Source: an uncultured Victivallales bacterium
GTDB lineage: Bacteria; Verrucomicrobiota; Lentisphaeria; Victivallales; GWF2-45-14
Length of the DNA stretch: 23,600 bases
Direction: 5' to 3'
Assembly: GCA_964651145.1 (NCBI GenBank)
Contig: CAZYVR010000044.1
Span: 1 to 23,600 of the forward strand
This document shows positions 1-23,497 of the stretch, one piece after another; position 1 is the stretch's first letter; every line of letters begins with the position of its first letter. A program made the translations under genes and the position numbers. Under the pieces are notes generated by a model. It was not told the DNA's origin. It searched no databases and saw nothing but the letters and a program-made list of their open reading frames with translations.

Positions 1-103
1 GATGGCGTCCGGACAAAGTCCGGTTTTTATTCCGACTCCGTCGGTTTTTTTATTTTTCAGTACTTTTGACAGTTCCGTCGATTTGGACTGTCCGTACAAA
101 GAG
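1..103. repeat. Copy A of an intergenic terminator-like repeat family (truncated by the window edge)
   Basis: Bases 1-70 are ~85% identical to 10636-10705 (gatggcgtccg..aagtccgg..ttttattccg..cgttttttt.tttt.ag.acttttg). Weaker similarity continues to ~103 (..actgtccgtacaaagag vs ..acagtcacgctaaaagtagag). It contains hairpins CCGGAC-aaa-GTCCGG and CCGAC-tc-CGTCGG, each followed by a T-run. It lies downstream of the 3' end of the minus-strand HAD gene. Confidence 0.6.
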
Positions 104-138
104 CCTCCTTATTCATTTTTTGTCCATAGCAAAAATCA

Positions 139-1047
139 TCAGTCAATTTTCCATTGGCTGCCAGCCTCTTTGCCTTTGAATTTTGCTTCAAGCTCAGATG
201 AAATATTAAAAGCCGCGTCTGGGTTTCCAGATACAGCTTCTTTTATGATGCTATTGCCTTTTTCAAAGCATGATTCTTCATCGCCGGGAATTATTGGCAC
301 AAAAATAAGATTCACGTTTTCAGGCGTTTGTTTTTGGGCCAGCTTGGAGGCGCGGCTGTCTTCCACGCTGTCGCCAAACATGAAAACATTCTTGTAGCCT
401 GAATTAGCCAATGCGGAAAGAGCTTCGGTTTTTGTCGCTGTTTCCTGTCCGAAATAACGCTTTATGAAGAATATATCCTCCTGTTCCATTGACGGTCTAA
501 TTGAACTTTCAGTGGCGGTTGACACTAAATAAAAATCCGCTTTGTCTTTGAATGAGTCAAGGATATATTCTTTTATTCCCGGCGTAAGACCAATGCCTGT
601 AAGCTGGGCAACTTTCTTGTCTACTTCTTCGCTCCATCTCAACATCCTTTTAATATCGTTGTCGTCTTTAAACGGCTCAAGGTTTGTTGCGTTTATCTTT
701 AGACCGTCGGAAGTTAGTTTTTTTAGCGCCGCATCAAGTCCAGGGAGTTTGCAGGGATATCCCTTTTCACTCGCTAAATAATTAGCTAAAGCATTGACGC
801 AAAGGAACCGCGCTTTGCCTGCATAGCCTTCTGAGAAGAAATTAATGTATCCATAGGCTTTTTTATATTCTTCAAGTGGAACCTTCTGAAAATCAGAAAC
901 ATGCAAAAAAAGCAAAGTGGACATTATTTGATGTTTGTGCTCAGTGAATAGTTTGCATACTCCGTCAAAATCCAACGCGATGGCAAAGTCATGCACAGGA
1001 ATAACCTGAGCAATTATAGCCTTTATTTGGTCGCTTAATTCTGTCAT
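139..1047 (-). CDS. HAD-superfamily hydrolase (phosphatase-like)
   Basis: 302-aa ORF. HAD motif I DxDGV (IALDFDGV) sits near the N-terminus and motif IV GDSxxD (FGDSVEDS) near the C-terminus. Its ATG overlaps the stop of the upstream GH3 gene (TAATG), indicating translational coupling. Confidence 0.7.
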   Translation of the reverse strand: MTELSDQIKAIIAQVIPVHDFAIALDFDGVCKLFTEHKHQIMSTLLFLHVSDFQKVPLEEYKKAYGYINFFSEGYAGKARFLCVNALANYLASEKGYPCKLPGLDAALKKLTSDGLKINATNLEPFKDDNDIKRMLRWSEEVDKKVAQLTGIGLTPGIKEYILDSFKDKADFYLVSTATESSIRPSMEQEDIFFIKRYFGQETATKTEALSALANSGYKNVFMFGDSVEDSRASKLAQKQTPENVNLIFVPIIPGDEESCFEKGNSIIKEAVSGNPDAAFNISSELEAKFKGKEAGSQWKID

Positions 1048-2750
1048 TATTTCACTCCTTTAAATAGCAATTTGCTGACTGCTTCGAAATTTTCGCGCAT
1101 TAGTCCATAGGACACAATAACTGACCCGATGTCCTCTGGAATTAACAGCTCTTCGTATGGATTGCTTGAAATCATGATAACAGGCTTTCCAAGTCTTTTC
1201 AGTTCACTAATAAACTTTTTGTCGGCATGGTCATGGTCATTTCTGTCAAAGTGCGCCGTAACAACAATACAATCGATTTGATCAATGATTTCGGCTGCGG
1301 CCGCCTTTGCCTTTTCGCGGCTCTTGGGCTGATAGTCTATATATGAAACATTGGGAGAATATTGCATCATAAATTCCCAGAACATAGCCGGATGATTCCA
1401 GGAGTCGTTGCGGCTTAGTTGAGAGAAAATAACCCGATCTATAAGCAAAATATTTTTGTTAGGATCGAGCGGCAAAAGTTTATCGTTGTCGCGTTTTACT
1501 TTTATAACTTTTGCAGCGGCTTCCCTGCCAATTGCCCTGAATTCCTCCTTTTGAATTATTGCCTCAGTTTGGGTTGTGTCCACAATTCCGCCGTTTTCAA
1601 AAAGACCGTAATCCCATTTCAAAGACCACACCCTGCGCAATGATTGATTAATCCTGTCTTCTGAAATGCGTCCGCTTTTTACTGCTCCCGCAAGCGAATC
1701 CAAAAGTTCATAGCGAAGGACATTTTCATCCTTGAGAAGCAGCAAGTCAACTCCTGCTTCGATTGCTTTTATGCACGCCTCTCCAACGCTGTATTTAGCC
1801 ATCAAGCCGCCCATTGTCATTGAATCAGTGGTAATGACTCCGTTATATCCAAGCTCCTCCCGAAGTATGCCGCTGATTATCTTCGGAGACACTGTCGCAA
1901 TCTCCCGACTCTCATCAAGCCCAGGGTAGACACAGTGCGCTGGCATGACGGATGGAATAAGCCCCTCTTGGGCTAGAGCAGCGTAAGGCTTAAGGTGAAT
2001 TTTCATCATCTCTTCTTTGCTGAGATCGATAGAGGACATTCCAAAATGAGCGTCTTCAGCGGTGTCTCCCCTGCCCGGAAAATGTTTCAAGCAGCCTATA
2101 ACATTTGCGCTTTTCAATCCCTCTATAGTGGCCTTGGCGCAATCAATCACCATGTCAACGTCTTCGCTGTATGATCTGGTATAAATTTCCGGGTTTCGTG
2201 GATTCACATTCACATCCACAACCGGAGAGTGAATCCAGTCAATGCCGATTGCCTTGATCTGTTGCCCAAGCGCTGCAAAAGCTCTTTTTACCAAATCAAT
2301 ATCACCGAGATGTCCAAACCCCATGGGGGCTGGAGTCGAAATCAATCCATTCGGCGTAAAGTCACCGCCTCCGTGTTCAAAGTCAGCCACCATATGCATC
2401 GGCAGGCCGCGCTCCCTGTCAAACGCTTTTTTGCGAAGCCCATTCAAAATTTCCGCATATTCTTTCGCGCTCACATGCATCGGCGGAATATCATTGTCAA
2501 ATATCTTTTCTCGCAGCGAAGGTTTGCGCTTTACGTTTTCAACTCCGGGAGACCCTTCCGGCAGATAACGCACAAATTTCCTCGCAAGATGAGGCGAAAG
2601 CCTAAGCCCTCCAAGCCCATATTTTTCGATAAATCCTACAAGTTCCGGTTCAATAAAAGTTCCGGTCAAGCCCAGCACCATCAGCTGCGCCACTTTTTCC
2701 TCAATGCTCAACTTTCCGAGAAGCTGATCTATAGTCTGCTCTTTATTCAT
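1047..2750 (-). CDS. Glycoside hydrolase family 3 (beta-N-acetylhexosaminidase/beta-glucosidase-like, NagZ-type N-terminal domain with a C-terminal extension)
   Basis: 567-aa ORF. GH3 signature KHFPGRGDTAEDAH matches KHFPGHGD. A nucleophile-region motif GYNGVITTDSMTMGG matches GFxGxxxSDxxxM. It is the first gene of a two-gene minus-strand operon with the HAD hydrolase. Confidence 0.8.
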   Translation of the reverse strand: MNKEQTIDQLLGKLSIEEKVAQLMVLGLTGTFIEPELVGFIEKYGLGGLRLSPHLARKFVRYLPEGSPGVENVKRKPSLREKIFDNDIPPMHVSAKEYAEILNGLRKKAFDRERGLPMHMVADFEHGGGDFTPNGLISTPAPMGFGHLGDIDLVKRAFAALGQQIKAIGIDWIHSPVVDVNVNPRNPEIYTRSYSEDVDMVIDCAKATIEGLKSANVIGCLKHFPGRGDTAEDAHFGMSSIDLSKEEMMKIHLKPYAALAQEGLIPSVMPAHCVYPGLDESREIATVSPKIISGILREELGYNGVITTDSMTMGGLMAKYSVGEACIKAIEAGVDLLLLKDENVLRYELLDSLAGAVKSGRISEDRINQSLRRVWSLKWDYGLFENGGIVDTTQTEAIIQKEEFRAIGREAAAKVIKVKRDNDKLLPLDPNKNILLIDRVIFSQLSRNDSWNHPAMFWEFMMQYSPNVSYIDYQPKSREKAKAAAAEIIDQIDCIVVTAHFDRNDHDHADKKFISELKRLGKPVIMISSNPYEELLIPEDIGSVIVSYGLMRENFEAVSKLLFKGVK

Positions 2751-3187
2751 TTCAATTTCCTTAAGGTAAGTTGTAATAATTAATTTCTTTTAATTGAATC
2801 AACATCGATATAGACTCCGCCGAACTAGCGCTCAAGGGATTCGTCTATAATATTATTTATTGCATTATTCCATTTTTTTATAGAAACTGCCTTTCATTTT
2901 ATTTTTCCCCATCAACCCTGTAGAAAAGCCAAAATTTTGCCAGACTGGAGTTAAATCCTTGCATTACATTTCCAGGAACATTTTCCGATAAAATAATGGG
3001 ATTTCTAGAATGCCTTTTTGAAATGCCTTGAGTTTTCATAAACCCTGCCTTGACTTGTGTAACATTTTCATTAATCATGAAGATTTAACATGTTTCTATA
3101 TAATAAAGTGCCTTTCAATTAATGTCAAGAAGGCTTTATGGTCTTATGTGCAAATTTCAAAAAAGCTCTTTTTGTGTACATATATTC

Positions 3188-3216
3188 ATTGACAAATGAG
3201 TTGTTTACATGTATTC
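3188..3216 (+). promoter_or_regulatory. Candidate sigma70-like promoter for the LacI-family regulator gene (TTGACA-17 bp-TATTCT)
   Basis: TTGACA at 3188-3193 and TATTCT at 3211-3216 with 17-bp spacing, ~45 bp upstream of the ATG at 3262. This is a pattern match only. Confidence 0.3.
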
Positions 3217-3232
3217 TCCTATATAATGTAAA
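3202..3232. promoter_or_regulatory. Perfect 8-bp inverted repeat GTTTACAT-N15-ATGTAAAC overlapping the putative -10/TSS; candidate operator
   Basis: GTTTACAT (3202-3209) and ATGTAAAC (3225-3232) are exact reverse complements. The core TACATGTAT...TATAATGTA is shared with the tandem motif upstream of the GntR-type regulator (15148-15188). Confidence 0.45.
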
Positions 3233-3261
3233 CTTTTCACACATCGGAGTATTCATTTAAA

Positions 3262-4251
3262 ATGGTCAAAAGAAAATGCGCAAAAAGCACAATAACGGAA
3301 ATAGCCAAAAGGGCTAAGGTTTCAGTCGCGACAGTATCCCGCGCATTCAGTGGGCACCCTTACGTAAAAGATGAATTGCGCGGGAAAATTTTCAAGTTGG
3401 CAAGAGAGCTAGATTACACACCTAAGGCAAGCGGAAGCAGGGAGCAAAGCACGATAGGAGTCATTATAAACGCATCTAAACGCAAAAAGCTTTCCATGGG
3501 GATTTTTGAATCAACCATGCTTAAAGAGCTCATAAATGAAATTTATTACCGCAACCTGAATCTCGAAATTATAACAGAAGTAAATCATTGTGATCTTGAA
3601 AAAAAATTCATAAAGGCGGCAATAATCCTTGGAGAGCACAAAGAAGAAGCGGGGAGTTTTTGCTCAAAGTGGCCAGGGACATCATTTATAACAGTCAATA
3701 ATTATATAGAAGGCTGCTATTTGGTTGCCTCGGACCACAAAGACAGCGCAAGGCAGGCGATAGAATATCTTATATCAAAAGGCCATAAAAAAATAGGCTT
3801 TCTTGGCTCGCTCCTTGAATCCTGGGGCGTAAAACAGCGATTTGAGGGATATAAAGAAGCCCTCGCTGAAAATTCTATAAAATCATCCCGCGATTATGTA
3901 AAATTCACAAATGGTTCAGAAGCGGTTGAATCCATTCTCAAAATAGCAAGATTTTCCCCGTCTGCTATTTTAGTCTGCGGTGAAAATATGTCAGCGCGAG
4001 CTAACTATGCCTTGTATCTTGCGGGGAATAAAGTTCCTGATGATATATCAATAATCACATATGAAGATTCTAATGTTTCAAAATATATATTCCCGCCAAA
4101 CACAACAATGTGCCAGGATTTTGCTCATCTGGCCAGCCTTGCCGTTGACAGAGCCGTTGAAATCATAAATGGCAATCCTAGTGATGATAAGAATATTTTC
4201 ATAAAAGATCAATTAATAGAAAGGGAATCTGTAAAAGATTTGACTTTCTGA
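3262..4251 (+). CDS. LacI-family transcriptional regulator
   Basis: 329-aa ORF. The N-terminal HTH TITEIAKRAKVSVATVSRAFSG is the LacI-type signature. The rest resembles a periplasmic-binding-protein-like sugar-binding domain. GGAG lies 11 nt upstream of the ATG. Confidence 0.85.
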   Translation: MVKRKCAKSTITEIAKRAKVSVATVSRAFSGHPYVKDELRGKIFKLARELDYTPKASGSREQSTIGVIINASKRKKLSMGIFESTMLKELINEIYYRNLNLEIITEVNHCDLEKKFIKAAIILGEHKEEAGSFCSKWPGTSFITVNNYIEGCYLVASDHKDSARQAIEYLISKGHKKIGFLGSLLESWGVKQRFEGYKEALAENSIKSSRDYVKFTNGSEAVESILKIARFSPSAILVCGENMSARANYALYLAGNKVPDDISIITYEDSNVSKYIFPPNTTMCQDFAHLASLAVDRAVEIINGNPSDDKNIFIKDQLIERESVKDLTF

Positions 4252-4412
4252 CAATAACTTAGAAAAAAGGATTTTGCTCACCTGGCCAGCCTTGCCGTTG
4301 AAATCATAAATGGCAATCCTAGTGATGATAAGAATATTTTCATAAAAGATCAATTAATAGAAAGGGAATCTGTAAAAGATTTGACTTTCTGGCAATAACT
4401 TAGAAAAAAAGG
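4117..4412. repeat. Tandem direct duplication (~153 bp + ~141 bp) of the LacI-gene 3' end plus downstream intergenic sequence
   Basis: 4117-4270 (last ~45 codons of the regulator, the stop and 'caataacttagaaaaaagg') is repeated at 4270-4412. The second copy has a 12-bp deletion between two GCCGTTGA micro-repeats. It also carries two substitutions: catctg->cacctg, and TGA->TGG at the former stop. Confidence 0.9.
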
Positions 4413-10278: not shown

Positions 10279-10492
10279 AATAAACATTCCTTTTAAATCT
10301 TGAGAGCTCCGAGTTCTTTGCTGTCAAAAGCCGATCTCTTTGTCTGTTAACTTAGCCAATTCCAATGAATAATCAATCGGCACCGGAGCCAGCACAAATA
10401 AATCTTTATATATAAAAGAATTATATTATTACACTTTTTTTTAAATATTAGCTAAGAAATCTAACCCCATATGTGGAAATGCAAGAGTTTTT

Positions 10493-10582
10493 TGCGCTGT
10501 CGCGGCAACTAGATTCAGCTTGTTTTCGCTTCTCGTTGCAACAAGCTGCAAGCTTTTCAATATGTCGTCTGCGCTGTCGCGG
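10493..10582. repeat. 13-bp direct repeats TGCGCTGTCGCGG (x2) flanking a 9-bp-stem hairpin CAGCTTGTT..AACAAGCTG
   Basis: Direct repeats at 10493-10505 and 10570-10582. The hairpin stems are 10516-10524 and 10541-10549, followed by CAAGCTTTTCAA. This is non-coding sequence upstream of thiG. Confidence 0.5.
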
Positions 10583-10635
10583 AATTTTTATATGCCAATG
10601 GCTTTCGCCGTTGGCTACCAGCGATTCAACAGTTG

Positions 10636-10744
10636 GATGGCGTCCGAAAAAAGTCCGGCTTTTATTCCGGCTGCGCCGTTTTTTTTAGTTTTAAGACTTT
10701 TGGCGGAGCCATCTCGCTCAGCGACAGTCACGCTAAAAGTAGAG
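10636..10744. repeat. Copy B of the intergenic terminator-like repeat family
   Basis: See copy A. GATGGCGTCCG...AAGTCCGG..TTTTATTCCGG..GCCGTTTTTTTTAGTTTTAAGACTTTTGGCGGAGCCATCTCGC. The 3' half is also similar to copy C (15056-15108). Confidence 0.6.
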
Positions 10745-10815: not shown

Positions 10816-11601
10816 ATGGCAAGAACTATTATGAATAAACTAAAAATAGCAGGCTCTGAATTAAAAAGCAGGCTTTTTCTGGGCACTGGCAAATTTTCGT
10901 CGTCCAAAGCCTTGAAAAACGCCATTGAATCATCCGGAACTGAACTGGTGACGGTGGCTCTGAGACGCGTGGAGTTAAACAACGAACAAGATGAGATATT
11001 ATCGGCAATAGACCGCGCCAAAACGCAAATAATGCTGAATACCAGCGGTGCCAGAAATGCGGAAGAGGCTATCAGAATCGCCGATTTCGGGAAAGCGGGC
11101 GGATATAAATGGATAAAGCTGGAAATTCACCCGGATCCTAATTATTTGCTTCCAGACCCCATCGAAACACTCATTGCCGCAGAAAAGCTCGTCCAAAAAG
11201 GCTTCATCGTATTGCCGTATATAAACGCGGACCCCGTGTTGGCCAAAAGACTTGAAGACGTTGGTGTCCATGCGGTAATGCCGCTCGGAGCCCCCATAGG
11301 AAGCAACCGCGGCCTGGAAACAAAGGCCATGCTTAGAATAATAATAGAGCAGGCGACTGTGCCGATAGTTGTCGACGCCGGCCTAGGATTGCCGTCTCAC
11401 GCGGCGGAAGCAATAGAAATGGGAGCGGACGCCGTTCTTGTCAACACTGCAATAGCCGCGGCCGGGAATCCGGCTGAAATGGCAAAAGCTTTTGCAATGG
11501 CGGTGGAAGCAGCCGAGCTGGCAATAAAAGCCGGTCCAGCCGCAATATCAGCAAAAGCGTCAGCCACATCCCCCATGGGCATTTTTGACAATGCAGTTTA
11601 A
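10816..11601 (+). CDS. thiG: Thiazole synthase ThiG
   Basis: Near-colinear match to the ThiG hallmark blocks: [83 protein letters not shown] and [33 protein letters not shown]. The start could be 10816 or 10831. No obvious RBS. Confidence 0.85.
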
Positions 11602-13023: not shown

Positions 13024-13092
13024 CGAGCAATGCGATGGCTTCGGCGTCCAATGCGGTAATCCCTCAGTGAAGCTGGCGCAACTGGCAAGCTT

Positions 13093-13124
13093 AGCTTATT
13101 TCCCGCTTCGCTTTGAAATAAGCT
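13093..13124. other. Perfect 10-bp-stem hairpin AGCTTATTTC-N12-GAAATAAGCT in the GH1/NifU-like intergenic region
   Basis: Exact inverted repeat. There is no T-run after it, so it is not a canonical terminator. GC-rich near-palindromes containing GGCGCGCC lie nearby (13139-13153). Confidence 0.4.
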
Positions 13125-13289
13125 TCAGGCTGTCAATGCGCGCTGGCGCGCCAATCCCAAAAATGATACCTTATTTATTCCATAAGAATTAGACGCGCGC
13201 TGGAATTAATGATATATTCATGATTTTGCCGCTTTTATAAAAAGGAAATAATTTTTTTTAGATAAACAATGAAGGAAGGAAAACTCGTT

Positions 13290-13999: not shown

Positions 14000-14995
14000 A
14001 TGTTATTTGAAAGTTATGAAAGACGGATAGATCAAATTCTCCCTTTGCTGAAAAAGCACGGGATTGATTCTGTGGAAGATGCTCAGGTCGTTTGCAAAGA
14101 CAAAGGTCTTGACATTTATACTTTGGTAAAAGAAATTCAGCCGATATGCTTTGAAGATGCATGCTGGTCATACATTGTCGGAGCTGCTGTGGCTATTAAA
14201 AAAGGCCAGACAGCCGCCACTGATATAGCCGAAACTATCGGTGAAGGATTGCAGGTTTTTTGCATTCCTGGCTCTGTCGCTGACGACAGAAAAGTCGGAA
14301 TCGGACATGGCAACCTGGCTTCCATGCTTCTCAAAGAAGAAACCAAATGCTTTGCGTTTCTGGCTGGACACGAATCCTTTGCCGCCGCAGAAGGCGCAAT
14401 CGGGCTTGCCAATTCCGCCAACAAGGCTAGAACAGAGCCGCTTCGCGTAATTCTCAACGGCCTGGGCAAAGACGCAGCTCAGATTATCGCCAGAATAAAC
14501 GGCTTCACCCATGTTCAGACTAAATTCGACTACTCCACTGGGGCTCTCGAAATTGTCAAAGAAACGCCATATTCAAAAGGCGACAGGGCGAAGGTCAAAT
14601 CTTATGGCGCAGACGATGTTCGCGAAGGCGTGGCTATTTTGACTTATGAAAAAGTCGATGTTTCCATCACTGGAAACTCCACCAATCCGACGCGCTTCCA
14701 GCATCCTGTTGCCGGCACATACAAGAAAGAATGCGTGCTTGCTGGCAGGAAATATTTCTCAGTGGCTTCTGGCGGCGGAACAGGAAGAACTCTTCATCCT
14801 GACAACATGGCTGCCGGCCCGGCCTCTTACGGGATGACTGACACAATGGGCAGGATGCACTCTGACGCTCAGTTTGCTGGTTCCTCTTCTGTCCCGGCGC
14901 ACGTCGAGATGATGGGCTTAATCGGCATGGGCAACAACCCGATGGTTGGAGCTTCTGTCGCTGTTTCAGTAGCTGTTGAAGGAGTTATGAAATAG
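14000..14995 (+). CDS. GGGtGRT-motif protein (uncharacterised conserved family)
   Basis: 331 aa. The literal motif VASGGGTGRTLHPDNMAAGP is present. I recall, but cannot verify, that 'GGGtGRT protein' is the annotation label of a family of unknown function. A strong RBS TAAGGAG lies 8 nt upstream. The gene is 17 bp after the NifU-like gene. Confidence 0.6.
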   Translation: MLFESYERRIDQILPLLKKHGIDSVEDAQVVCKDKGLDIYTLVKEIQPICFEDACWSYIVGAAVAIKKGQTAATDIAETIGEGLQVFCIPGSVADDRKVGIGHGNLASMLLKEETKCFAFLAGHESFAAAEGAIGLANSANKARTEPLRVILNGLGKDAAQIIARINGFTHVQTKFDYSTGALEIVKETPYSKGDRAKVKSYGADDVREGVAILTYEKVDVSITGNSTNPTRFQHPVAGTYKKECVLAGRKYFSVASGGGTGRTLHPDNMAAGPASYGMTDTMGRMHSDAQFAGSSSVPAHVEMMGLIGMGNNPMVGASVAVSVAVEGVMK

Positions 14996-15027
14996 TTCTC
15001 CGAAACAAGTTTTGGAGCTTTTATTTA

Positions 15028-15068
15028 GGGCGCGCCTTGTTCTTTTCAAGGCGCGCCCGTTTTTTTAT
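15028..15068 (+). terminator. Rho-independent terminator for the NifU-like/GGGtGRT operon
   Basis: 12-bp perfect GC-rich stem GGGCGCGCCTTG / CAAGGCGCGCCC with a 7-nt loop, followed by TTTTTTTATTTTT. Confidence 0.85.
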
Positions 15069-15108
15069 TTTTCAGACTTTCAGCGGCTCCATCGCATTGC
15101 GCATTTGC
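15056..15108. repeat. Copy C (3' core only) of the intergenic terminator-like repeat family
   Basis: CCCGTTTTTTTATTTTTCAGACTTTCAGCGGCTCCATCGCATTGCGC matches copy B 10675-10722 and copy A ~40-95. In this copy the upstream hairpin is replaced by the GGCGCGCC-stem terminator. Confidence 0.5.
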
Positions 15109-15147
15109 AATTATGGATTTTTTTTTTTTGCAAAAGGACTTTACTTT

Positions 15148-15188
15148 TACATGTATATAATGTACTATAGCTACATGTATATAATGTA
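15148..15188. promoter_or_regulatory. Two tandem copies (24-bp period) of the near-palindrome TACATGTATATAATGTA upstream of the GntR-type regulator; candidate operator/promoter
   Basis: Exact 17-mer at 15148-15164 and 15172-15188. Each has TACAT/ATGTA inverted arms and an embedded TATAAT. The same half-sites occur in the LacI-gene promoter (3202-3232). Confidence 0.5.
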
Positions 15189-15210
15189 TTAACCGCTCTT
15201 GGGGATTTTT

Positions 15211-16287
15211 ATGCAAGCGACTATGCCGGAATATATGAAGGTAAGGGCATACCTTTACAAGCTGATAATGAGTTCCGACAGAGAATCTCTCCAAATTCCT
15301 CCTGAGAACGAGCTGTGCCGCCTCTTTGATGTCAGTAGGGTTACTGTTCGCGGAGCAATCAAAGGTCTGGTCAAGGACAAATTTCTGATTCCGCGCCGTG
15401 GCCTCGGCACTTTTATAAACCCGGAAACACTCAATCGCAAAACGCTGCAAATGTCTACAATCGGGGTGACTAAAGGCTACGGGAATCATGTATCCAATAC
15501 ATATGACACAGGCATACTTGAAAGCATCATTCAAAGCGGATTGAATTTTGAGCCTGTGTATCTTCCTGATTCAGGCAAGCCGGATACTCTTTTAGAAATA
15601 ATTAGAAGCAGTTTAAGTGGGATCATATGGGAGAACTCGAGTGTCGATTCTTCTTTTGAAAGCTATATTGACGCTCTTTCAAAAAGTGGAATCCCTGCGC
15701 TTTTGGTGGAGGAGGAAAAGCCTCTGGGCGCAAATGATTATATACTTTCAACCCGCGTCCAAAGAGGACGAGTCATTGCTGATTACATGTATTCCAAAGG
15801 ACACAAGAGAGTTTTATTTATTCATAATGACGATTCTTATGACGCGCATTTCAACCCATCTTCGACCTACGGCGGTTATTGTCAGCGCATGACTGAATTA
15901 TGCGGCGATGAGTGGGGGGCTCTCGAAAATAACATTGTCTCAGCTCAAGACTTTAATCGCAAACTTAAAGCCATCAATTCATTTACAGCTGTTTATTCAG
16001 GCAACTATCTGGTTCCTTTTGCAACTGATGAGCTGGCTTCGGCAGGAATATCCGTGCCGGATGATTTGTCGTATCTTGTGTATGAGGAGTCAAGCCCTTT
16101 CTTCTTTAACGGCCTTCAACCTGACTTTATAGATAAAAAAGAGCCGCTTAAAAAAGCTGTCTTTGAATGGCTGAGTCTTAGAGTTTCTAAAGAGAGAAAA
16201 AAATCGGATATCTTTTGCAGAAATATCGAAGTAAAACCTGTTCCAGGCGAAACAGTAAAAGATTTGAATGGAGGGAAAAATGATTAA
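15211..16287 (+). CDS. GntR-family HTH regulator fused to a LacI/PBP-like sugar-binding domain
   Basis: The N-terminal [38 protein letters not shown] is a GntR winged-helix signature. The C-terminal ~270 aa resembles a periplasmic-binding-protein-type effector domain. An alternative TTG start is at 15199. Confidence 0.7.
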
Positions 16288-17029
16288 TAAAAATAAAAGA
16301 TGTTTTAAGAAATTTACACTCATTGAATTGCTCGTTGTAATTGCCATCATAGCAATCCTGGCGAGCATGCTGCTGCCCGCCTTAAACAAAGCGCGCGAGA
16401 CAGGAAAAAGAATCGCCTGTCAGTCAAATGAAAAGCAATTGGGGCTGGCGTTTCAGATGTATCTGGGTTCGTGGGATGGCTGGTGGTTTGATCCAACCTG
16501 CTCTGATGATGACTTAAAAAAATGGCCGAAAATTCTCATTGAGGAAGGATCCGTAAAACAAGGCAGGCATCCAGTTGACTTTGACCTGCATTGCCCTAGC
16601 CGCCTTTCCCCGGGGCCAGACCCTTACAATTGGGACACTCTTGAGCATGATAATTTTACTGATTACGCTTTGTGCGCCACCAATTACTGGTCAGGAGGAG
16701 GTTTAAAAGGCGTTCATTCTGATTACAGCGGATGCAAAGCCAATCAAATAAATAACCCATCTAATTTTATAGTCCTCACTGAACGTTGGGATAAAAATCC
16801 AAAGACAATCAACAGCACGCTGGTGCGTGATCGAAGATACTGGCCAGGCGGCGCCAATGACACCTTTCTCCATCCATGGATGCATGACAAAAGCAGCAAT
16901 TATTTGTTTGCTGACGGTCACGTGGAGTCTATTTTGGCAAAGCAATTGAGATTGGAAAGGTTTATGCTGGGAACGAATCAAGGATATTATGACGCTAATA
17001 AAGATTTTCAGCCAACTTGTCCATGGTAA
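16280..17029 (+). CDS. Prepilin-type N-terminal cleavage/methylation domain protein with C-terminal H-X9-DG (DUF1559-like) motif
   Basis: [26 protein letters not shown] is the class-III signal/methylation motif. The C-terminal [21 protein letters not shown] contains H-X9-DG. The GGAGGG RBS overlaps the last 8 bp of the GntR gene. Confidence 0.8.
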
Positions 17030-22867: not shown

Positions 22868-22894
22868 TTTTCTCTCCTAATTGTTTTTTTATTT

Positions 22895-23497
22895 TTAAGA
22901 TATTTTTTTGACTAAATAACGTTTGTCGTCAATCATGTTTTCTATGATAACGGATGTTCCCGTGGGCAGTTCTTCGTCCGAGAGCGCTCTTACTTCACGA
23001 GTCACGCCGCTGACGGACACCGTCACTTTGCCCGCCGAAGCTCTTTGAGCGGGGATTGACAGATAGACAGTGCCGGAGCATCCTATCAGATCCCGCGGGG
23101 CAATGTTTCCGCTGTGTTGCAGTTTCAGCATTGCGAACACCAGAATAGCAGTCATAAACATCATTGCTATGCCGGAGGCAAAAGCTCCAAAAAATCCGCC
23201 CCAGCCTGCGTCTCCCCAAAGTACTCCGCCCCAGCCGAAAAAAGTGATGAAAGCGAAAACTGCGCGGAGCGAGAAAAATCTAAATTCAGCAAAACCTGAG
23301 TCGGCATGTTCCCCGAAAGACACGTCTCCGTCCCCGTTTGCGTCCATGCCTGAGTCTTCGCCTCCGAATCCCAAAAACACCATTATCATTTGTATAAGAA
23401 AAATTGATGAGCCAAACAGGGCAAGGAACCAGTAAATATATCTTACTTGCGCTGTTTTAAGAAACTCTCCGGTCTGGCTGATAAAATCAAGAACCAT
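22895..23497 (-). CDS. NfeD/YqiJ-family membrane protein (OB-fold C-terminus) partnered with the flotillin
   Basis: 200 aa. Multiple TM helices. The C-terminal GKVTVSVSGVTREVRALSDEELPTGTSVII matches the NfeD OB-fold domain. It sits immediately upstream of the flotillin gene, as in the E. coli yqiJ-yqiK pair. GGGGG RBS. Confidence 0.7.
   Translation of the reverse strand: MVLDFISQTGEFLKTAQVRYIYWFLALFGSSIFLIQMIMVFLGFGGEDSGMDANGDGDVSFGEHADSGFAEFRFFSLRAVFAFITFFGWGGVLWGDAGWGGFFGAFASGIAMMFMTAILVFAMLKLQHSGNIAPRDLIGCSGTVYLSIPAQRASAGKVTVSVSGVTREVRALSDEELPTGTSVIIENMIDDKRYLVKKIS

Follow-up and report, generated by a model that had tools for sequence, protein, structure and literature searches.

Correia elements of Neisseria, together with ERIC, RUP and BOX-type repeats, are abundant intergenic sequences with inverted-repeat ends and stable RNA hairpins, and can be terminators, processing sites or promoters when co-transcribed. 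Correia elements measure ~100-150 bp and are accompanied by a TA duplication. To our knowledge, REP elements possess neither long terminal inverted repeats nor a target duplication, and transposition of the RAYT/IS200 type makes no target duplications. Bacterial MITEs are characterized by defining features that include a size of ~50-600 bp and the lack of a transposase gene (PMC6382973). For MITEAba12 of Acinetobacter, the partner insertion sequence ISAba12 was argued from common termini and duplication length, and 40% of the MITE copies keep an intact duplication (PMC6382973).

The 23.6-kb stretch of DNA analyzed here (the window) contains four copies or fragments of a repeat, all on the + strand, which with a probability of roughly 0.85 derive from a non-autonomous DNA transposon, a 244-bp MITE, in an uncultured Lentisphaerota bacterium. 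The small size, non-coding nature, inverted termini, fixed-length duplication and occurrence at many unrelated sites make the element a bacterial MITE by the defining features of the class (PMC6382973). MITEAba12/ISAba12 is the closest documented analog in logic. Both MITEs are small and non-coding, occupy many intergenic sites, have ends in common with an insertion sequence whose duplication length equals their own, and potentially affect neighboring transcription; intact duplications accompany 40% of MITEAba12 copies and 6/15 copies of the present element. However, the candidate parent here is IS1182-like and encodes a DDE transposase of 554 aa, the target duplication measures 6 bp instead of 9 bp, the element is twice the length of MITEAba12 with an interior unrelated to the insertion sequence, terminator-like hairpins are present where MITEAba12 has outward promoters, and the partner is known from related genomes only. 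The RNA-level signals resemble those of Correia-type repeats as these are generally described, with no sequence relationship between the two; the present MITE differs from Correia elements in its modular chain of ~7 hairpins, its two tandem hairpins with T-runs on one strand, and its 6-bp duplication. Like REP, BIME and REPIN sequences it comprises clusters of short GC-rich palindromes that are intergenic and often near gene 3′ ends, but unlike REP it has both terminal inverted repeats and a target duplication. The candidate parents, with a length of ~1.87-1.88 kb and one long ORF, match the IS1182 family best; unlike IS1182 insertion sequences, the MITE encodes nothing. Thus, the MITE is a known kind of element, whereas the present family seems undescribed, and no description of MITEs was found in the literature for Lentisphaerota, nor any paper that mentions sample 3300005932.

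The family was delineated with the 21-base core pattern GGATGGCGTCCGNNNAAAGTCCGG, which was matched exactly on 35 contigs in two metagenomes (JGI 3300005932 and Ga0207996) with different flanking genes on each; we infer that all 35 contigs come from one genome. A profile HMM derived from 15 full-length copies located outside the window detected ~60 full or partial copies in these contigs, and the search for further copies advocated in an earlier sequence-only reading of the window was rewarded in this way. The core had 0 matches in 185,579 species-representative genomes (GTDB), so that either the source species is absent from the GTDB representatives or its representative lacks the core. Plasmid and phage collections yielded no match to the element. 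When the 35 contigs were aligned in register, the canonical unit proved to be 244 bp and sharply bounded, with ends that are 20-bp terminal inverted repeats (GACGGAGCCGCCAAAAGTCC ... GGACTTTTGGCGGCTCCGTC) at constant distances from the core (-164 and +60..+79) in 15 copies or more. Variants of 252 bp have a different hairpin pair in the middle of the element, in those of 265 bp the final hairpin module is duplicated, and deletion derivatives of ~125-150 bp also were found. The ORFs that overlap copy B of the window gave no Pfam match and the element is without coding capacity. Element positions 166-186 (GATGGCGTCCGGACAAAGTCC) are similar to the left terminus at 16/20 positions when compared by eye. 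Accordingly, the last 79 bp look like a nested mini-element, and it is exactly this piece that opens the window.

Target-site duplications, which the sequence-only reading had recommended looking for, were 6 bp in length. The 6-nt flanks were identical on left and right in six of the 15 complete copies (GCATTA twice, GCCTTA, GCAATG, TAATAC and TAGTTC) and matched at 5/6 positions in two more, whereas mismatched pairings of left and right flanks were identical in only 3/210 cases (1.4%). One further duplication, CAATTT, was observed in L003. A matching duplication is missing in about half of the MITE copies, and no orthologous empty site was present among the loci compared. A loose consensus of G/T, A/C, A, T, T, N is discernible in the flanks and points to a preference in target choice. 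In copies lacking a duplication (L006, L020 and L094 flanks), the left flank often corresponded to the target consensus when reverse-complemented (TAAGGC, TAAGGT, TAATCG), and the right flank was in the forward sense; the reversed left flanks could stem from a target that is palindromic, from a terminal repeat that is longer but imperfect, or from recombination among copies. At six loci (L003:133-627, L028:2882-3202, L036:2660-2924, L005, L023 and L024), a right terminus that was either full or represented by only the last 12-20 nt preceded the next left terminus by exactly 6 bp, and the same 6-mer recurred after the downstream copy. This spacing suggests insertion beside existing ends, or tandem dimers.

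The copies in the window are listed in Table 1. The sequence-only reading had compared three of these and had estimated ~85% identity between copies A and B, a value that was reproduced over 1-60 and 10636-10695 (85%, ungapped); the repeat search also tied the T-run core of these two copies to 15054-15075. The likeness had been extended to ~110 bp, ending at 103, 10744 and 15108, but it ceases at 79, 10713 and 15093, beyond which the flanks are unrelated. Copy B is a real copy as proposed, although its start lies ~165 bp further left than had been supposed, near 10471. The third, partial copy suggested near 15056-15108 was recovered in the profile search as copy C, and the composite fragment had escaped notice.

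Table 1. Positions of repeat copies, their termini and hairpin modules (window coordinates unless a contig is named).
Feature	Position	Strand	Basis and remarks
Copy A	1-79	+	nhmmer E = 1e-22, model 166-244; right third of type-1 MITE
Copy A, internal left-terminus-like sequence	1-21	+	
Copy A, right terminal inverted repeat GTACTTTTGACAGTTCCGTC	60-79	+	
Copy A, terminator-like module 1	hairpin CCGGAC-AAA-GTCCGG 9-23, then TTTTTATT; to 31	+	terminator scan
Copy A, terminator-like module 2	hairpin CCGAC-TCC-GTCGG 32-44, then TTTTTTTATTTTT; to 57	+	terminator scan
Copy B	10471-10713	+	nhmmer E = 2e-51 for 10482-10713, model 12-244; full-length, diverged type-1
Copy B, left terminal repeat, degenerate	10471-10490	+	
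Copy B, right terminal repeat AGACTTTTGGCGGAGCCATC	10694-10713	+	
Composite fragment	13037-13156	+	nhmmer E = 1e-7 for 13069-13156, model 23-116
Composite fragment, type-1 left terminal repeat remnant GATGGCTTCGGCGTCCAATGCGG	13037-13060	+	
Composite fragment, sister-element terminal repeat CCCTCAGTGAAGCTGG	13061-13076	+	after TAAT
Type-2 element loci	window 13061-13156 (partial); L033:1935-2100 and L016:4663-4888 minus strand (complete)		
Two hairpins before copy C	14998-15017, 15028-15058	+	terminator scan; directly after stop codon of GGGtGRT-family gene
Copy C	15053-15093	+	nhmmer E = 0.004, model 203-244; solo right end

The left 165 nt of copy A fall outside the window, as anticipated in the sequence-only reading which regarded the copy as cut by the window edge and the unit as longer: two public contigs, L001 and L002, supply 67 nt more of family sequence and this extension aligns with the sequence left of copy B. 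The sequence at copy A is 100% identical to that of L001 (an ENA contig) across 4340 nt, and the minus-strand protein beside it (139-1047) is encoded on both of these contigs, from an ENA and a JGI assembly. The two assemblies break off at an identical position, 67 nt before the first base of the window. Repeats typically break short-read assemblies, and the interruption of two independent assemblies at one base inside common sequence is a signature of a dispersed repeat.

Copy B, ~75-80% identical to other copies, shows 74-85% identity to more than 40 loci in blastn comparisons. Its flanks, CCCCAT on the left and TCGCTC on the right, hold no matching target duplication, and the copy probably is an old insertion. 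It is not located at a gene 3′ end, in agreement with what had been noted before, but in the promoter region 103 nt upstream of thiG (10816-11601). A TPP riboswitch upstream of thiG was ruled out as there was no Rfam match. A CRISPR/tracrRNA-like array, considered because GCGCTGTCGCGG occurs twice in copy B at a distance of 75 bp, also was rejected: only 13 nt are common, and the two occurrences belong to two different hairpin modules.

The composite fragment, in which the stretch 13061-13156 corresponds to the left ~95 nt of a sister element (type 2), is 96-99% identical to L016:4815-4892 and L006:1193-1270, and no right end is present within 13037-13156. The profile match of copy C stops exactly at the last position of the model. 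In this copy the order is T7-A-T5, CAG and right terminal repeat AGACTTTCAGCGGCTCCATC (15074-15093), with GCATTG as the flank; a comparable solo right module is situated behind a co-oriented gene in L028. A fourth T-run match at 22883-22906 was dismissed as chance since the profile was silent there even at E = 100.

The genes of the window include several glycoside hydrolases, a DUF1559/N-terminal-methylation protein and ThiG, for which the best named relatives are from Lentisphaerae bacterium GWF2_44_16 (82%) and Victivallaceae (74-77%), which points to Lentisphaerota for the uncultured host. The window has no tRNA or tmRNA genes. Several other repeated sequences were observed. A sequence of ~150 bp is repeated in tandem at 4115-4409 with 97-99% identity; the duplication takes in the stop codon and 3′ end of a LacI-family gene (3262-4251), and the public contig L001 ends within it. 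A 17-bp imperfect palindrome, TACATGTATATAATGTA, is found twice at 15148-15188, 24 bp apart and just upstream of a GntR-family gene (15199-16287); from their sequence the two palindromes look like operator sites. A run of 12 T residues (15118-15129) separates copy C from these palindromes. The region 16313-16395, which is N-terminal coding sequence of the DUF1559/N-methylation protein (16268-17029), had seven matches with 81-92% identity in the fetched contigs that reflect a multigene family and not a mobile repeat.

The origin of the MITE termini was investigated by scanning the genome collection for the terminal repeat pattern GAYGGNNCCGCCAAAAGTCC. The scan returned 48 places, which is about the estimated chance number, and Lentisphaeria/Victivallales genomes were among those matched. 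The Lentisphaeria/Victivallales matches are not due to chance: a single long conserved sequence starts at three of them in one genome and at one in a second genome. This sequence is exemplified by L045:1736-3615, a 1880-bp insertion sequence with the ends GACGGCACCGCCAAAAGT and GACAGCGCCGCCAAAAGT and a single ORF (1865-3529) of 554 aa. The protein matched the Pfam families DDE_Tnp_1_6 and DDE_Tnp_1, both above cut-offs. The best of the five matching NCBIfam insertion sequence families was IS1182 (NF033551; E = 1.3e-44), with 152.9 bits against a cut-off of 270, and the assignment to IS1182 accordingly is loose and indicates a divergent clade. A protein search produced >1,800 transposase homologs, many on contigs of ~1.9-2.5 kb as expected of repeated insertion sequences. 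Among nine homolog contigs, five (L086, L087, L088, L094 and L095) show both ends in the form GA-C/T-N6-C/T-GCCAAAAG, L090, L092 and L089 show one such end each, and in L091 no insertion-sequence end was detected; the L088 contig is exactly one element long. The homologs bounded by similar ends, and L089, are 72-75% identical and come from other samples. A perfect 6-bp duplication, GAATTA, that fits the target preference of the MITE flanks L095:243-2122; both flanks could be read for five full copies of the insertion sequence, and this is the one clean duplication among them. Lentisphaerae bacterium GWF2_44_16 (L081) carries a solo insertion-sequence end. No partner transposase was traced to the source samples: the nine homologs followed and one cluster listing all led to other samples.

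On the basis of these sequence comparisons, the IS1182-like insertion sequences of ~1.88 kb are the likely parent of the MITE. Mobilization in trans is suggested because the ends and the duplication length are common to the MITE and the insertion sequence: an IS1182-like DDE transposase, supplied in trans, would bind the terminal repeats and would excise or copy the MITE, inserting it with a staggered 6-bp cut. Beyond the terminal 18-20 nt the MITE and the insertion sequences have nothing in common and the interiors are unrelated. Thus, the MITE is not a simple internal-deletion derivative of the insertion sequence. Short elements with the left terminus of the MITE (GACGGCACCGCCAAAAGTCC and GACGGAACCGCCAAAAGTCC) were observed at L043:3886-4050 (~165 bp) in a Victivallales genome and at L047:4821-4910 (~90 bp) in a Sedimentisphaerales genome, respectively; each has an imperfect matching right terminus, and the interiors are unrelated to the present MITE family. 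One transposase clade may have spawned several independent MITEs.

The interior of the element is a chain of ~7 short hairpins between the termini. The hairpins were specified by hand on the alignment of 15 copies, and the structure tested thus was read from the same sequences on which the following values were obtained; the RNAalifold consensus did not recover the local hairpins. Hairpin cells were paired in 92% of cases compared to 18-43% when partners were slid by 1-3 columns, and nine pairs had changed on both sides. The covariation score was 0.183 versus 0.089 in shuffles, a value reached by 0/500 shuffles in a control that ignores relatedness. Compensatory change preserved the pairing of four out of seven helices, most clearly in the first long hairpin, where two subfamilies differ on both sides at three stem positions (A-U to U-A, U-A to C-G and G-C to U-A). 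In the fold of the canonical copy (-104.7 kcal/mol; z = -6.2), the termini pair around the hairpin chain.

A T-run comes after each of the last two hairpins (stems of 6 bp and 5 bp), but only on the + strand of the element. On the reverse strand A-runs precede the hairpins, and any termination hence would be one-directional. The sequence-only reading had described terminator-like hairpins with T-runs in the copies, and the terminator scan bore this out at 9-23, 32-44, 14998-15017 and 15028-15058, and more weakly at 10656-10673 in copy B. In copy A, module 1 folded at -9.9 kcal/mol with adjacent pairs included, and the corresponding helix 6 was 93% paired in the 15 copies; module 2 folded at -5.6 kcal/mol, and in its counterpart, helix 7, one pair was kept through a two-sided change from A-U to G-C. 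The second hairpin before copy C has a 12-bp GC-rich stem and folded at -27 kcal/mol with z = -5.4. The two hairpins (14998-15058) are at the positions of the two hairpin modules of the MITE, but are different in sequence, and they likely are the working terminator of the GGGtGRT-family gene (14000-14995). With each insertion of the MITE, two weak intrinsic terminators that act in one direction are predicted to be introduced. Such terminator activity would be cargo or a by-product of the MITE and not the cause of the resemblance between copies.

The sister element has the termini CCCTCAGTGAAGCTGG ... CACTTTCACTGAGGG and interior hairpin modules in common with the main family; its terminal repeat occurs once in the window. 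In L016 and L025 the type-2 element adjoins a type-1 copy head-to-head across TAAT/ATTA. The same interior modules therefore lie between two kinds of terminal repeat, GACGGAGCC... and CCCTCAGTGAAGC....

These observations bear on whether the repeat is foremost a structured RNA: a multicopy small-RNA gene, or a cis-acting RNA module riding on the transposon, for example a transposition regulator, an mRNA 3′-end stabilizer or an insulator, the interior of which is under RNA-level selection. Such a module is compatible with a MITE and would account for the compensatory pairing in four of seven helices, which is strongest in the first long hairpin between subfamilies, for the z value of the element fold (-6.2), for strand-specific T-runs at the 3′ end, and for one interior between two different terminal-repeat kinds. 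It nevertheless is considered improbable: no promoter was identified, there was no Rfam match at or near threshold, and the hairpins could persist for DNA-level reasons or reflect subfamily history. In the Rfam searches, the window was without matches at gathering scores, and copy B and the canonical copy gave only chance-level matches at relaxed E-values. A related proposal, equally guarded, is that the hairpin chain and one-directional terminators are selected portable cargo, a functional RNA module that is exchanged by at least two transposon systems. The two kinds of terminus, the compensatory pairing, and the excess of copies oriented against same-strand neighbors that is described next (11 anti-oriented versus four co-oriented) are the grounds for this proposal, which is a tentative and rather unlikely extension of the MITE.

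For ~40 copies, the placement of the MITE relative to genes was tallied from crude gene calls that relied on ORFs. The gene 5′ of the element was co-oriented in 10 cases and opposite in 21, and in spacers between same-strand genes the element was co-oriented in four and anti-oriented in 11. Copies were as frequent in divergent spacers and those on the promoter side as they were downstream of genes, and only copy C and the L028 solo module occupy the 3′ end of a co-oriented gene. These counts are opposite to the expectation for copies that were selected to terminate upstream genes, and argue against such selection. The counts are not significant and are only weakly suggestive of purging of polar, co-oriented insertions. 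Where a convergent gene lies to the right of a copy, its stop codon was within ≤50 nt of the right end in 11/17 cases (L004-L037; window 79-139), and some convergent ORFs extend into the terminal repeat.

The sequence-only reading had offered a family of conserved factor-independent terminators as one possible cause of the likeness; each copy would then be selected in place for its upstream gene, without mobility. GC hairpins followed by T-runs do occur in every copy, copy C and the solo module of L028 lie directly behind a co-oriented stop codon, and the stem of the second hairpin shows compensatory changes. However, the likeness spans 244 bp and takes in the 20-bp inverted termini as well as ~165 bp of structured sequence that precedes the hairpins, the unit is flanked by 6-bp duplications, the upstream neighbor is co-oriented in only 10 of 31 cases (10 versus 21) with four co-oriented versus 11 anti-oriented copies in same-strand spacers, and copy B resides in the promoter region of thiG. 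This explanation, already largely refuted by the duplications and the inverted termini, is very unlikely. The alternative of a REP/MITE-like mobile repeat in the same reading stands in respect of the MITE, by virtue of termini, duplications and copy number, but not of REP. Spread of a REP/BIME or REPIN element by a RAYT (Y1, IS200/IS605-like) instead of a DDE transposase is just as remote. In its favor, the intergenic copies do contain short GC-rich palindromes in series, some copies differ by an exchanged or doubled hairpin module (variants of 252 and 265 bp), and head-to-tail and head-to-head clusters are present. However, the element has defined 20-bp terminal inverted repeats common to DDE insertion sequences, 6-bp target duplications and a unit length fixed at 244 bp.

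Overall, the MITE and its candidate IS1182-like partner are additions to the Lentisphaerota, and leave the general understanding of how MITEs act unchanged. If the repeats are a MITE, the host genome is expected to contain an insertion sequence of 1.87-1.88 kb with ends like GACGG..CCGCCAAAAGT. The element explains the assembly breaks at these points in the host organism and provides a marker for contigs of this lineage, and the four stretches in the window are to be masked as mobile repeats before operons, promoters or terminators are predicted. The family also is a natural test of whether a transposon with one-directional terminators reshapes transcription units. If the interior were indeed portable cargo, host transcription boundaries, or a small-RNA family, would be distributed and reshuffled by transposons.
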